Virus record (IMG/VR): IMGVR_UViG_651053021_000003
Length of the DNA: 47,598 bases
Origin: a virus
Taxonomy: Duplodnaviria > Heunggongvirae > Uroviricota > Caudoviricetes
Reading direction: 5' to 3' (one strand)
A program made the position numbers and the translations under genes. The notes under the pieces are model-generated. The model did not search any database, was not told the origin of the DNA, and was given only the letters and a program-made list of their open reading frames with translations. This document shows, in pieces, positions 34,387 through 38,601 of the stretch (its first letter is position 1; each line of letters starts with the position of its first letter).

Positions 34387-35532
34387 TTATTTTTGTTTTA
34401 TGGTAAATGAAATAACATTGTCAGAATGAATCATATCTGATTCTTTAAATCGTGTAATTGCAGATAACTCATTTAAGGGAAGAGCAAAGATATCAGTTAA
34501 CTCAGTTACCTTTATGATTGAATGCTTATCAAGAAGTAAAAGTAACTTATTAAGTAACTCAGGCTCTTCTTTTGGGATTGCATCATCTAACGGCTCCCTA
34601 CGATGGAATGGCGCTAATTGCTTAAATATATAGCTTTTCTGATTATCGCTGATTAACTTAAGGCTATGACTCCTCATGGCAATACTACCGATAGATGTAA
34701 TCCAACGTAGTTTTAATCGTTCTAACGCTGATAAATTTGGACTATAAAATTCACGCCCGAAAGTGGTGGCTGGCATTAAAAAGCTGGAGGCAAAATAATC
34801 GGCCTGCAACTCCACCAGGTCGAATAATTCTTTATCATTCAGGTAGTCATCCTCCACTGCCCTATGCATAATTAAATGGCCAAGTTCATGAGCAAGACTA
34901 AATCGCATGCGAACAGCTGTCTTCGAGCTATCTAACATAATTAAAGGCCGCCCATTATGCCAGAACGAAAAGGCATCAACTTTCTCACCAGAAGGTAAAT
35001 GAGAAACCACGATTCCTTTATTTTCAACAAGTCTAGTTAAATTGAGTATTGGACCATCACCTAACCCCCAAAAACGCCTTAATTGGGTGGACATATCCTC
35101 AATATCAGATAGAGACAGAACCTCAAAATCAATAATATCGAATTCAGGCAGAACCACATCTGGTAATTGAGCATATTTTAGACATTCATCCAATATTAAT
35201 GCCGCCCAACGCCCACGTGTTTTCCCTGTAACTCGAGCCTTTTTGGTCGCAGTTGAACGACTTCTAAAATGAATCGCCCCCTCCAGAGATGGAGAAGCAC
35301 TGGAGGCTAAGAAAAATCGTTCTGGAAATCCTAACACCTTGGCTATTGCAGAAAGTGTATCAGCAGAGGGAGACTTCAACCCCTTCTCAAATGACGAAAT
35401 AGCTTGTCTTGAAATATTGAGCACTCTGGCAAGTTCAGCCATCGTCAACCCTTTTGCCTCTCTTGCCTCCTCAAGGCGACGAGGATTAAACGATTTATCA
35501 GTAAATGGTGTTTGTGCGATATTCATGCTCAT
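34387..35532 (-). CDS. Fused XRE-type HTH / ImmA-IrrE family zinc metallopeptidase (COG2856-like) protein, 381 aa
   Basis: N-terminal HTH (LTMAELARVLNISRQAISSFEKG); HEXXH motif HELGH in central domain; ~42% GC. Confidence 0.85.
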   Translation of the reverse strand: MSMNIAQTPFTDKSFNPRRLEEAREAKGLTMAELARVLNISRQAISSFEKGLKSPSADTLSAIAKVLGFPERFFLASSASPSLEGAIHFRSRSTATKKARVTGKTRGRWAALILDECLKYAQLPDVVLPEFDIIDFEVLSLSDIEDMSTQLRRFWGLGDGPILNLTRLVENKGIVVSHLPSGEKVDAFSFWHNGRPLIMLDSSKTAVRMRFSLAHELGHLIMHRAVEDDYLNDKELFDLVELQADYFASSFLMPATTFGREFYSPNLSALERLKLRWITSIGSIAMRSHSLKLISDNQKSYIFKQLAPFHRREPLDDAIPKEEPELLNKLLLLLDKHSIIKVTELTDIFALPLNELSAITRFKESDMIHSDNVISFTIKQK

Positions 35533-36143
35533 GATTGCTGTGATTTAATTATTTGTTCGGTAAGAATCTTGATTTTATCTTCAATCTCAGAATCCACATT
35601 TTCTGCTTCAACTTCTACCATCGTCATAATTGGTAAAGACTCAGTATAAAGAATCCCGTAATTATCCGAAGAAGGAACAGTTAAATTCAGTTTGGACAAG
35701 TGCTGATTACTGCCATCATGTAACATATAAACATGTCCACCAGACGCTCTCCCATCCAGGGAGTCGGCATTTTCATCCCCAAAATTCAATTCATAATTTT
35801 GATTAGCGTAAACAGCTCTATACAATGCCTGCTTAGGAAGTGGCGCATTACCCGATAAATGATGTGCCGTCATTTTCCAGTTGTTCGAGTGAATCGCAAT
35901 GTGTTTACAATTTTTAGCAGCATTGCTACCGACTTCAAAATCCAGCCCCACACGCTTAGCCGCATTCTCAAGCAATGCATCGGCATAAAACCAGCGCAAA
36001 TATGACTGTGCTTGAGCCCAAAAAGAACCAAACTCTTTTGCCTTCATATGCGAATGAAGATAAGCCTGTGCTAACGCGATCGAAAGCTCTTTGCGGCACT
36101 CCTTGTCATATGCTTCTAACAACTGTTGAGATAAATTCTGCAT
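35529..36143 (-). CDS. Hypothetical 204-aa protein co-operonic with the HTH-ImmA gene
   Basis: ATGA stop-start overlap with downstream gene; no recognised motifs. Confidence 0.65.
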   Translation of the reverse strand: MQNLSQQLLEAYDKECRKELSIALAQAYLHSHMKAKEFGSFWAQAQSYLRWFYADALLENAAKRVGLDFEVGSNAAKNCKHIAIHSNNWKMTAHHLSGNAPLPKQALYRAVYANQNYELNFGDENADSLDGRASGGHVYMLHDGSNQHLSKLNLTVPSSDNYGILYTESLPIMTMVEVEAENVDSEIEDKIKILTEQIIKSQQS

Positions 36144-36218: not shown

Positions 36219-36241
36219 AGAAAAACCCGCCGAAGCGGGTT
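36219..36241 (-). terminator. Rho-independent terminator downstream of hok
   Basis: AACCCGC-cgaa-GCGGGTT hairpin followed by T-run on minus strand. Confidence 0.5.
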
Positions 36242-36309
36242 AAGCGCGGGTGCATTGAGGATGCCTGACTCATCAGAGGTGGCGAGGGATTTCTCCCCCG
36301 CCTAGTCTC

Positions 36310-36465
36310 TTACTCCTCAGGTTCGTAAGCTGTGAAGACAGCGACCTCCGTCTGGCCGGTTCGGATTCGTACCTCGCAGAGGTCTTTCCTCGTTACCAGT
36401 GCCGTCACAATGACGGTTAAACAGATGACGATCAGGGCGATTAACATCGCCTTTTGCTGCTTCAT
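36310..36465 (-). CDS. hok: Hok/Gef family type I toxin (51 aa)
   Basis: MKQQKAMLIALIVICLTVIVTALVTRKDLCEVRIRTGQTEVAVFTAYEPEE matches recalled Hok; an in-frame upstream extension to 36522 (70 aa) may be a mok-like leader. Confidence 0.9.
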   Translation of the reverse strand: MKQQKAMLIALIVICLTVIVTALVTRKDLCEVRIRTGQTEVAVFTAYEPEE

Positions 36466-36504
36466 AGCCTGCTTCTCCTTGCCTTTCGGCACGTAAGAGG
36501 CTAA

Positions 36505-36590
36505 CCTAGATTTGCCGTTCATAGATTGAGCCTCAGATTAATGTTAAGCGTCTTGCAGGACGCGTAATGTTAACTGGGGCTTTTCTCTAT
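36505..36590 (+). ncRNA. Putative Sok-like antisense RNA (approximate)
   Basis: Inferred from hok architecture; candidate TTGCCT-N17-TAACCT promoter and hairpin GCGTC-ttgcag-GACGC on the plus strand opposite the hok leader. Confidence 0.3.
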
Positions 36591-36676
36591 CTGCCTTTGG
36601 TGTTCATGCCTGAGGCAGATAGCCTCAAGCACCCGCAGCAATTCTACTTAACTCACGTCACCTCGCCAATATAAAA

Positions 36677-36766
36677 TCAATCAGAAAGGCGATCCATAAG
36701 AACAACAGCAAGGCAATAAATTGCCATTACAGCAGCAATAGCCAGCGCACATTTGAGAACCAGCAC
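36677..36766 (-). CDS. Candidate 29-aa hydrophobic peptide (possible type I toxin-like small membrane protein)
   Basis: AGGAGG then 5 nt then GTG; translation (M)LVLKCALAIAAVMAIYCLAVVLMDRLSD has one TM helix and a charged tail. Confidence 0.3.
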   Translation of the reverse strand: MLVLKCALAIAAVMAIYCLAVVLMDRLSD

Positions 36767-37266
36767 CACAACCTCCTGTATTGGACGTACACCAGTCCTG
36801 ATAAATATGAGGCTGTCTCGTCAGTGATTCAATACAACTATTGGGTATAGTTTCTGTGATTTTGTTCTGTAGAAATGGAACACAACAACCAGTCACCACC
36901 AGCACTTCTTTAAATACGCCAAGTCCGACGCAAGCTAACTTTCTAGTCCGCTTTGAGCGAGAAGCAGACATTTACTTAACTGGATAGCAAGAGACTTCAT
37001 ACTACAGCTCATACATCATGGTTGATCCCGGAGTTTTCAGTAATGGAAATTGCCCACATGATCGTACCGTAACCACATTAGAAGCAGGTTCACTTTGTGA
37101 ATTTTGATTGTGTCAACCTATCAGTTTTGAATTTTTATAAAAAATATTCGCAAATTTGTGAATTATGAGAGACATACGAGCATGGACAACCAATGTTACT
37201 TTCATACACAATTAAGCAACATGATAAAAATACACTGACTTTAGTAAGTAAATTTAGGAGATTGCG

Positions 37267-38601
37267 ATGTTTAGCTTAATCATGGCCGGAGAACCGGACG
37301 TTTTTGACCGCTGGCCGTGTATGGACCCTGAGCTTAAAGAAGGCAAGGAAAGCTTCTCGATGTCCCGCATGCTGGAAGGCACCCCAAGCGATATTTACAG
37401 TAAATTAACACCAATAAGACCCGATACCTTAAGAGAACTCGCCAAGTTACCGGTGTTGTTCATGACCGAAATTTATACAAAAGATGATGAATATGATACA
37501 AACAAGTACATCAGGATCAGGCTTGGGGAAATAAGAAATTTACGTAAAGATGGTGGCGATATTTTATTTTCTTTCAAGATTAATCATGATTTTGGAGAAA
37601 TAACAAATCCCCAAACGACATTATATAAAGAAACCCTAGGACTAGGATCTTTCGGGTTAAGTCGTACACATTGGGCAGTAAAAAATAAGGATTTGAATAT
37701 TGTTCTGGAATTACTTGGTTTAAACCAAAAAAATAGCCATCTGAAAGGTACAATCAAATTAAAAAAACAAACATACCCAGTAGTCGAGAATATTATAGAT
37801 TATCTTGATTTCATTAGGAAAAACTTTCGTGATGGTCTCATTACCTTTTATCGTGGACACTCTAAAAGCTCATATGAGCTTGTCCCCTCTCTTTACAGAA
37901 AAAATCAAAACGGGACGTACAGGCATCTTGCTTCAGAATCTGATTTAGTACGTGAAATACTCAGCGCAAGACCAAATGAATTTAAGGGGGATAAATTTAC
38001 GATTGATAAACTTGTCCGCATGCAGCATTATGGCTTGCCTACAAGACTCTTAGACATTACATCTAACCCACTGATAGCATTATATTTTGCTTGCTGTTCG
38101 AACCCCGATGAAAACGGACAGGTGATTTCGTTTTCAACAAACAGAAAGAAAATTAAATATTTCGACTCAGATACAGTGAGCTGTATAGCAAACTTATCAC
38201 TTTTATCTTACGAAGAGTTGGAAAAATTGTCTTCCATTGATGCCAGAAAAGGTAATATGGAGTTATTAGAACTCACTGATAAACTTGCAGACCTTATACA
38301 GAATGAAAAATCATATTTCAGAAACAGAATAAGCCCTGATGACTTAAAGAAAGTTGTTTTCCTTAAGGCTAAAATAAATAATGAACGCATACAATCTCAG
38401 GCAGGAGCTTTTCTTCTGTTCGGACTTGATCCCATTTTACCGGAAACAGATGCTGAGTTTCCTCTTAACAGAGTGGAGATAGCGAACAAAAATAAAATTC
38501 TGGAAGAGCTGGCACAGCTTAATATATCCGAAAGCACTGTATATCCCAGCATGGAGAAAACGGCAGCAGAAATTACAAAAAAGTTTTTATCGGTATCATA
38601 A
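37267..38601 (+). CDS. FRG-domain protein (444 aa), function unknown
   Basis: Motifs FYRGHSKSSYELVPSLYR, RMQHYGLPTRLLDITSNPLIALYFAC, QAGAFLLFG; AGGAG RBS; body ~33% GC, first ~45 codons ~50% GC. Confidence 0.8.
   Translation: MFSLIMAGEPDVFDRWPCMDPELKEGKESFSMSRMLEGTPSDIYSKLTPIRPDTLRELAKLPVLFMTEIYTKDDEYDTNKYIRIRLGEIRNLRKDGGDILFSFKINHDFGEITNPQTTLYKETLGLGSFGLSRTHWAVKNKDLNIVLELLGLNQKNSHLKGTIKLKKQTYPVVENIIDYLDFIRKNFRDGLITFYRGHSKSSYELVPSLYRKNQNGTYRHLASESDLVREILSARPNEFKGDKFTIDKLVRMQHYGLPTRLLDITSNPLIALYFACCSNPDENGQVISFSTNRKKIKYFDSDTVSCIANLSLLSYEELEKLSSIDARKGNMELLELTDKLADLIQNEKSYFRNRISPDDLKKVVFLKAKINNERIQSQAGAFLLFGLDPILPETDAEFPLNRVEIANKNKILEELAQLNISESTVYPSMEKTAAEITKKFLSVS

Follow-up and report, generated by a model that had tools for sequence, protein, structure and literature searches.

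The window analysed here is a 47,598-nucleotide (nt) stretch of DNA from a virus of the Caudoviricetes (IMG/VR record IMGVR_UViG_651053021_000003). Its sequence is identical to that in the Escherichia coli LF82 chromosome and in phage Tritos (OV696610), and represents a lambdoid prophage. We focused on a 29-codon open reading frame (ORF) on the minus strand, hereafter the small ORF, which adjoins the hok/sok type I toxin-antitoxin cassette and probably is a genuine gene. On the minus strand, the replication and DUF977 genes are followed by an FRG-domain gene on the opposite strand, approximately 800 nt devoid of annotation, and hokD; after hokD come two more genes, and next ydfU and a Q-like antiterminator gene. 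The small ORF lies inside the ~800-nt stretch and is annotated in neither LF82 nor Tritos. The features of this region are as follows.

36804..36832, minus strand: candidate sigma-70 promoter of the small ORF, with −35 TTGAAT (36832-36827), a 17-nt spacer and −10 CATATT (36809-36804)
36777-36772, minus strand: Shine-Dalgarno (SD) motif AGGAGG, separated from the start codon by the 5-nt spacer TTGTG
36677..36766, minus strand: the small ORF, 29 codons plus stop, from GTG (36766-36764) to TGA (36679-36677), with the product MLVLKCALAIAAVMAIYCLAVVLMDRLSD
36641..36669, minus strand: hok promoter, with −35 TTGGCG, a 17-nt spacer and −10 TAGAAT, nearly invariant in the alignment of BLAST-derived relatives
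36460..36634, minus strand: 5′ leader of the hok mRNA and Sok target region of the type I toxin-antitoxin cassette (Rfam RF01794, 111.7 bits, E = 9e-26)
36310..36522, minus strand: mok frame (36522-36310), which encloses the hokD coding sequence (CDS)
36465-36310, minus strand: hokD CDS, 51 amino acids (aa), as annotated by RefSeq in LF82 (WP_000813254.1)

The original prediction, made from the letters of the window, had placed an AGGAGG, a 5-nt spacer, a GTG and a 29-codon ORF on the minus strand, and we found exactly this arrangement at 36777-36677. The small ORF translates as (M)LVLKCALAIAAVMAIYCLAVVLMDRLSD. Its product has one predicted transmembrane (TM) helix at about residues 2-24, followed by the tail MDRLSD, so the single TM helix and short charged tail that had been proposed are borne out. 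The grand average of hydropathy (GRAVY) of the peptide is 1.81, and its best 19-mer (residues 6-24) reaches a Kyte-Doolittle value of 2.70; of the window's 810 segments of 25-60 aa between stops, just five are comparably hydrophobic. The minus strand of the window has 14 copies of AGGAGG; eight of them precede a start codon by 4-9 nt, and five of these eight combinations open genes of 140-699 aa. Together with the rarity of such hydrophobicity, these statistics make the small ORF combination unlikely to be a chance product. The net charge of the peptide is zero, its tail is acidic, and it ends five residues past the helix. The ORF listing of the window begins the frame one codon earlier, at GTG 36769; that codon is just 2 nt from the SD motif and is not conserved. 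Scans against Pfam, NCBIfam, PHROGs and PADLOC gave no meaningful match for the small peptide, and the PADLOC defence models returned zero matches for the 29-aa and the 34-aa form (described below) alike.

The same DNA can be read in an overlapping frame of 96 aa (36971-36681, minus strand), which is Cys-rich and has no apparent SD motif before its ATG. The original prediction had noted this frame and its missing ribosome-binding site, which is indeed the case, and had considered that it might be conserved in place of the 29-aa frame. Of the 69 distinct sequences, only 3 have the same ATG ORF; from stop to stop, the frame measures anything between 28 and 131 codons, and in the alignment it is mostly missing in three relatives. 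The comparison hence favours the 29-aa frame, and the 96-aa frame was rejected as a gene. Longer gene calls also cover the small ORF. For the region 36780-36971 (minus strand), gene callers report, in some relatives, products of 68, 97 or 165 aa (proteins P0004, P0008 and P0010) having the same peptide at their end, and the 68-aa form occurs on 232 contigs. Such calls arise from a mutated in-frame TGA (36823-36821) or from a 1-nt indel that joins two frames, and they are not conserved. These extensions look like annotation artefacts. They also show that the upstream 190 nt are unusually poor in stop codons.

We inspected eight relatives that were obtained by BLAST, and hence not selected for a start codon, with DNA identity down to 81%. 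AGGAG and GTG are invariant in all eight, and AGGAG is also kept in the copy on pINV, the virulence plasmid of Shigella and enteroinvasive E. coli (EIEC). The ORF is intact in the BLAST relatives, with 29 codons, or 35 codons in a lineage that has lost 11 nt right at the end, and the amino acid changes are conservative. In two of the eight, homology begins just ~20 nt upstream of the SD motif, which indicates that the unit preserved through recombination comprises the SD motif, the small ORF and hok. A scan of viral contigs (IMG/VR and reference) with a pattern demanding the SD motif and the start found 128 copies, in which every complete ORF is intact; two short ones end at a contig edge. A second scan, for which the final seven codons plus the hok promoter were the sole anchor, revealed 45 loci with one common QueH junction; at one such example (L135), hok too is cut short by a DNA methyltransferase gene. 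At a few further junctions, cargo cuts into the small ORF and hok remains intact. One allele (L205), whose SD motif is ruined (AGAAAG) and whose frame is shifted by a 2-nt deletion, looks like a pseudogene. The translation signals of the small ORF persist wherever the gene itself has not been cut away. The original prediction had made its case depend on conservation of the peptide frame in related prophages; the frame is kept there, on Shigella plasmids, and in a divergent subtype.

Queried with a 176-nt element that spans the SD motif, the small ORF and the hok promoter, 1846 of 5426 complete E. coli genomes cover at least 80% of its length, at 81-100% identity, and almost always without annotation. 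In some genomes the NCBI annotation pipeline PGAP lists the product as WP_000960667.1, a 29-aa 'hypothetical protein' to which the window peptide is 90% identical. Exact-sequence look-ups retrieved sporadic 'hypothetical/membrane protein' calls, one of them in E. coli B REL606. The strains with the 29-aa allele include UTI89 as well as BL21(DE3) and REL606 (protein ACT39199.1). In K-12 the match is limited to the hok CDS. A scan of species-representative genomes detected the element in Escherichia and Shigella only, aside from short contigs in metagenome-assembled genomes labelled Collinsella and Haemophilus, which look like contamination. An exhaustive phmmer search of 1.84 billion representatives and a search of 5.8 billion proteins yielded close relatives only, and those with a named source are all from E. 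coli or E. albertii.

Four forms of the peptide were seen, namely those of 29, 28 and 34 aa and the pINV copy, and they share the core ALA..V...YCL.V.LM(D/E)R. The 28-aa subtype has GGGAGG and an ATG start, and differs by an in-frame 3-nt deletion. The 34-aa subtype, MSDD(I/L)SLAMEGALAVI(A/S)VVGVYCLVVFLMDR(L/M)GN, is present in 674 genomes; it is hosted by O157:H7 prophages, in several copies per genome, and also by an IncY plasmid, and occupies the same slot as the 29-aa form. The two forms are 46% identical in amino acid sequence over 28 codons; in their alignment, homology sets in at about codon 2-6 and continues up to the stop, whose position is shared. The 5′ untranslated region (UTR) and first codons of the 34-aa subtype are unrelated to those of the 29-aa form, yet the subtype has its own AAGGAGGG motif and ATG, and the frame is maintained.

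The O157:H7 copies have further features. In strain EDL933 (L141), an unannotated hydrophobic 27-aa ORF, MIWPEAFAITGVAIAIDFLVYVICRWG, lies at 2415-2498, with GGAGG 7 nt before its ATG. This ATG overlaps the stop of a DUF551 gene (ATGA), and the ORF directly precedes the 34-aa ORF, so that O157 prophages may have two tandem microprotein genes before hok. At 2641-2662 of the same locus, as also in L139 and L140, a perfect 22-bp palindrome, CGATATGGGAATTCCCATATCG, is located between the small ORF stop and the hok promoter. The palindrome is without a U-tract and is not present in the window's subtype; it might bind a protein or form a hairpin in RNA.

The pINV copy, MLVLKGTLAIAAVMTIYCLIVVLMERFSD, is 79% identical to the window peptide and has AGGAGG, an ATG start and no indel. 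The tblastn search with the peptide, a check suggested by the original prediction, uncovered these plasmid relatives: there are 143 pINV matches, 135 of which are at 60-80% identity. The copy lies ~290 nt upstream of the virulence gene icsP. Compared with the window, the pINV small ORF has 18 substitutions in 90 positions and no indels, whereas the hok leader beside it has 22 substitutions in 97 positions, seven gap columns and a truncation; the hok remnant has three indels. In Shigella flexneri pWR501 (NC_002698; positions 1601-1800 of locus L138, record positions 220153-220350), the small ORF is intact, and past it lie the remains of the hok promoter and leader, decayed and truncated. A fossil of a hok cassette sits within the icsP upstream regulatory region, and pINV plasmids carry it in E. 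coli hosts as well as in four species of Shigella.

Substitution patterns point to selection on the amino acid sequence. The ratio of non-synonymous to synonymous substitution rates (dN/dS) is 0.16 between the window and pINV (10 synonymous and 7 non-synonymous changes, P = 0.013) and 0.33-0.40 between the window and the 34-aa type. In a spanning tree of all haplotypes, 42, 23 and 55 changes fall on codon positions 1, 2 and 3, respectively; the synonymous fraction is 0.45 versus 0.30 expected (P = 3e-4), and the other two frames show no excess. Among the first 21 haplotypes, not one of the 32 non-synonymous events in codons 2-24 gives the core of the helix a residue that is polar, charged or Pro, with P between about 3e-4 and 7e-3, and the sole charge change is K5T in the N-terminal flank. 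Avoidance of stop codons within the small ORF is not significant, with ~2% of single changes creating a stop by our own count.

These results bear on the view that the small ORF is non-functional, being a young, chance-born or decaying frame with an SD-like motif that hitch-hikes with hok, and that ribosome footprints on its homologue (see below) are pervasive translation. Such a view is in line with the narrow taxonomic range, the uninformative within-species dN/dS, the repeated truncation by cargo insertions, the one frameshift, and the absence of a domain match for the peptide. It does not account for the frame-specific signal and the dN/dS of 0.16-0.40 across subtypes, nor for the strong SD motif and start supplied by both independent 5′ ends, the GTG-to-ATG changes that still give a start codon, and the deletion in the 28-aa subtype that stays in-frame. 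The pINV copy is equally hard to accommodate, as the small ORF carries no indel next to a hok remnant with three. We consider a functionless frame unlikely.

We also searched for signals of expression. Transcription from the candidate sigma-70 promoter is predicted to start near 36797. In alignments of the window, pINV, strain 127, HannyBb and N1420, the hexamers and the 17-nt spacing are kept while the spacer sequence has diverged, a pattern typical of promoters. In variants without this promoter, the small ORF comes directly after the upstream gene. The small ORF has the same orientation as the early-right operon, and should therefore also be transcribed upon induction. At the level of translation, the O157 Sakai copy of a 34-aa member was reported as the novel translated gene XECs145 in ribosome profiling (RIBOseq) (Huecker et al., 2017; PMC5597208). 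In lysogeny broth (LB), XECs145 has reads per kilobase per million (RPKM) values of 79.1 for RNA and 346.1 for RIBOseq, a ribosome coverage value (RCV) of 4.35 and a coverage of 0.99; in brain-heart infusion (BHI), the respective values are 121.3, 150.1, 1.14 and 0.84 (PMC5597208). The mean LB RCV of short annotated genes in the same study is 1.55. Its authors predicted XECs145 to be an inner-membrane protein with one TM helix and, following their method, called it from a far-upstream rare start codon (PMC5597208). We observed that this call overlaps the 3′ end of the MIWPEAFAITGVAIAIDFLVYVICRWG ORF in a different frame.

The SD motif, start, frame and stop kept across unrelated 5′ ends, the substitution bias and the ribosome-protected O157 homologue together argue that the small ORF is a real gene. 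Our favoured interpretation, which we hold to be probable, is that it is translated into a 29-aa single-pass inner-membrane microprotein, belongs to an Escherichia/Shigella family located directly upstream of hokD/hokW-sok, on the same strand, in lambdoid prophages, and plays a membrane role independent of Hok.

The original prediction had gone further and proposed a second small toxin-like gene beside hok. The small gene is upheld, while its assignment as a toxin, and as a type I toxin in particular, is not: we found no conserved antisense promoter and no match to an RNA family or toxin profile. In this alternative, the peptide would be a Hok-like depolarising killer, silenced by an antisense RNA or by the fold of its mRNA and freed by stress or prophage induction. 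The size of the small ORF, its single TM helix and its short charged tail resemble those of TisB, ZorO, Ldr and Fst-like toxins; with a GRAVY of 1.81, the product is a small hydrophobic membrane peptide as type I toxins are; and the gene adjoins a bona fide type I system. The search for an antisense promoter, which the prediction had called for, did locate, on the opposite strand, a site resembling a promoter (36648-36677, TTAACT-18-TAAAAT), from which an antisense RNA would run through the ORF, and a hairpin at ~36935-36960 could terminate such an RNA. The site is not conserved, however. Its −10 hexamer TAAAAT occurs in just 17 of the 58 distinct sequences, with TGAAAT in most; one lineage has lost it by deletion, and the 34-aa type lacks it. 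A promoter scan, alignments and Rfam searches over the ORF, all computational, found no cognate antisense or cis-encoded RNA antitoxin, and no Rfam family covers the small ORF. Terminator-like hairpins within the small ORF are weak and occur at shuffle frequency. The mRNA fold of the ORF region is unremarkable (z = −1.5), with no unusual structure sequestering the SD motif.

Similarly, Pfam, which holds Hok/Gef, and the PADLOC toxin and defence models have no match for the peptide; it does not match the Hok/Gef profile (PF01848) even at E = 10, and NCBIfam gives nothing meaningful. Many known type I toxins have a basic C-terminus, whereas the tail of the 29-aa peptide is acidic and its net charge zero. 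Different from a tightly silenced toxin, the O157 homologue is efficiently translated in growing cells, with the RCV of 4.35 in LB. The lack of a conserved antisense promoter, the lack of co-variation with Hok, and the translation of a homologue in growing cells thus argue against a classical type I toxin, which we judge improbable. Toxicity of the 29-aa peptide upon over-expression is quite possible, as it would be for any hydrophobic peptide.

The relationship with Hok was examined across loci. An identical Hok, WP_000813254.1, accompanies the 29-aa type, the 34-aa type and truncated ORFs. As the same Hok occurs with differing or truncated ORFs and pINV keeps the ORF without hok, the small ORF product does not look like an obligate partner of Hok. 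The physical linkage is nevertheless tight: hok starts 206-218 nt past the small ORF in 121 of the 123 assessable loci, the small ORF stop is 8 nt from the −35 hexamer of the hok promoter, and a terminator/promoter scan of the window found no terminator between the small ORF and hok. Such an arrangement would suit a cis-acting or regulatory role, in which transcription and translation across the stretch matter rather than the peptide. In one version, read-through transcripts would be protected; in another, transcription would interfere with the hok/sok promoters. Interference of this kind could help explain the loss of Sok RNA upon prophage induction: which induction event removes the sokW RNA was left open by Takada et al. 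(2021; PMC8621323), and sense-strand read-through from pR would cross the small ORF. We nonetheless find a purely cis-acting role very unlikely. The synonymous excess and the retained hydrophobicity reflect selection on the amino acid sequence, the small ORF is kept on pINV although hok is dead, and the same Hok protein is encoded at loci where the ORF is truncated. In the 34-aa type, an extra 34-nt insert between the stop and the hok promoter shows that the spacing is not conserved. The best complementarity between the ORF and the hok mRNA is 9 perfect nt, of which ~0.8 cases are expected by chance (our own estimate from the length of the regions).

Under the favoured interpretation of a Hok-independent membrane microprotein, expression in the lysogen would be driven by its own weak sigma-70 promoter, in the manner of a moron, and read-through from the early-right operon would add to it during lytic growth. 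The peptide is predicted to insert with N-in/C-out topology, K5 being inside and the acidic tail outside. Within the membrane it may work independently of Hok, modulating either a membrane protein or the properties of the membrane itself, as in lysis timing or superinfection exclusion. It would not be a killer regulated in the way of Sok, and its link to hok would be physical rather than an obligate toxin-antitoxin partnership. In our ranking, an independent membrane modulator comes first, followed by a second toxin, a purely cis-acting element and a functionless ORF.

Several points weigh against this interpretation. The biochemical role that it assigns is a guess. The small ORF family is narrow, confined to Escherichia/Shigella, and young, and its conservation could in part be hitch-hiking with the strongly constrained hok leader. 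Cargo junctions that cut the small ORF in several lineages imply that the gene is dispensable. In the 28-aa subtype, which was found later than the first 21 haplotypes, position 14 of the helix is an Arg, a counter-example to their conserved hydrophobic core. The candidate promoter is weak, as it matches 8 of 12 consensus positions and falls under the scan threshold, and it is absent in BL21-type and some other variants. The RIBOseq support concerns a 46%-identical, multi-copy homologue with a longer called start rather than the 29-aa/LF82 allele, and its footprints are not frame-resolved. Within E. coli there is no usable signal of selection: on a minimum spanning tree the dN/dS of the ORF is 0.53 and that of the other frames 0.44-0.92, and the hok positive control gives 0.78, so that the method is powerless at such divergence and the estimate was discarded.

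A related possibility is that the small ORF and hok constitute a two-peptide membrane module, in which the small peptide tunes Hok damage or lysis timing during prophage induction like an antiholin or co-holin, or that its function is instead directed at the host. We regard this as unlikely; a host-directed function, if true, would explain why pINV retained the ORF, with an improved ATG start, after hok had decayed.

The small peptide was compared with known systems. The 34-aa members, XECs145 and WP_001278450, WP_001278460 and WP_077779993, resemble it in slot, strand, stop position, strong SD motif, single TM helix and the core ALA..V...YCL.V.LMDR. They differ in an N-terminus that is longer by five residues (MSDDI/L), an unrelated 5′ UTR, a net charge of −3, and the 34-nt insert with the 22-bp palindrome before the hok promoter. 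The Hok/Gef proteins (HokD/HokW, PF01848) are likewise small, have an N-terminal TM helix, target the inner membrane and belong to the same prophage cassette. Unlike them, the small peptide has no detectable sequence relation to Hok/Gef, is 29 rather than 51 aa long, and has no periplasmic Cys-containing domain; the small ORF also has no mok-like overlapping frame, fbi/tac leader or conserved antisense RNA. HokW aids phage release on induction (PMC8621323).

In length and single hydrophobic helix, the peptide is similar to TisB (29 aa), ZorO (29 aa), DinQ, Ldr, ShoB, Ibs and the Salmonella TimP/TimR system. TisB/ZorO-type toxins and TimP are defined by a cognate repressing RNA together with toxicity. 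In the present case, an antitoxin RNA and homology to this group were not found, and a homologue is translated in healthy cells. AcrZ, MgtS, MgrB, KdpF and CydX, as well as prophage exclusion proteins such as HK97 gp15, have ~30-50 aa; several consist of a single helix, and they are constitutive and bind larger membrane proteins. Prophage-encoded small membrane proteins of this kind are moron-like and expressed in the lysogen. The comparison with the AcrZ/MgrB/gp15 type is an analogy of working mode only, as we found no sequence similarity to the small peptide.

In the literature on hok prophage loci, the icsP upstream region, Shigella small ORFs and LF82 ribosome profiling, we found no description of the small ORF beyond XECs145. 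What is already known comprises an unnamed hypothetical protein in databases and one homologue in a RIBOseq list; the family, its linkage to hok and the pINV copy seem to be new, as we found them described nowhere in that literature. The absence from K-12 probably explains why small-protein surveys of K-12 omit the small ORF. An unnamed gene is thus carried by about one third of complete E. coli genomes, by the virulence plasmids of Shigella and EIEC, and by the laboratory B strains BL21 and REL606. The locus has been studied as hok/sok alone, and deletions or clones of the 'hokW-sokW' type may unknowingly take in or omit the small ORF. If a modulation of the membrane, lysis timing or superinfection is true, prophage hok cassettes would have to be reinterpreted. 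The small ORF further offers a clean, testable example of a conserved bacterial microprotein that is absent from K-12.

Together, the small ORF and hok/sok are the conserved anchor next to a slot with variable cargo and defence genes, and candidate anti-phage defence genes lie on both sides of the hok cassette. In the window, the upstream side of the hok cassette is occupied by the FRG-domain protein (37267-38601, plus strand), which matches PADLOC PDC-S15 with E = 1e-98. In various genomes this slot holds FRG/PDC-S15, SIR2, restriction endonuclease, DUF4145, SEC-C or AAA+HNH genes, and with such varying contents the stretch from DUF977 to ydfU looks like a cargo/defence hotspot of lambdoid prophages. 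Downstream of hok, the genes at 35529-36143 and 34387-35532 (both minus strand) match RmrT (E = 7.5e-10) and RmrA (helix-turn-helix and ImmA/IrrE peptidase, E = 5.5e-102), respectively, and this pair is taken to be a Rosmer-like system.

Two further elements were noted around the cassette. The block shared with other prophages is bounded on its left by an imperfect inverted repeat, GTCCGCTTTGAGCGAGAAGCAGAC (plus strand), at ~36935-36960. In phage mEp460 the corresponding element was rated terminator-like, on the strand opposite to hok, and the repeat could serve as a stop for antisense or Sok read-through transcripts. Just past the hok stop codon, a weak isrK-like Rfam match (36220-36301, minus strand) reaches 26 bits, the gathering score being 50. 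It closes with a strong GC hairpin and U-run, AACCCGCTTCGGCGGGTTTTT, and is most likely the 3′ end and terminator of the hok mRNA rather than a separate small RNA.

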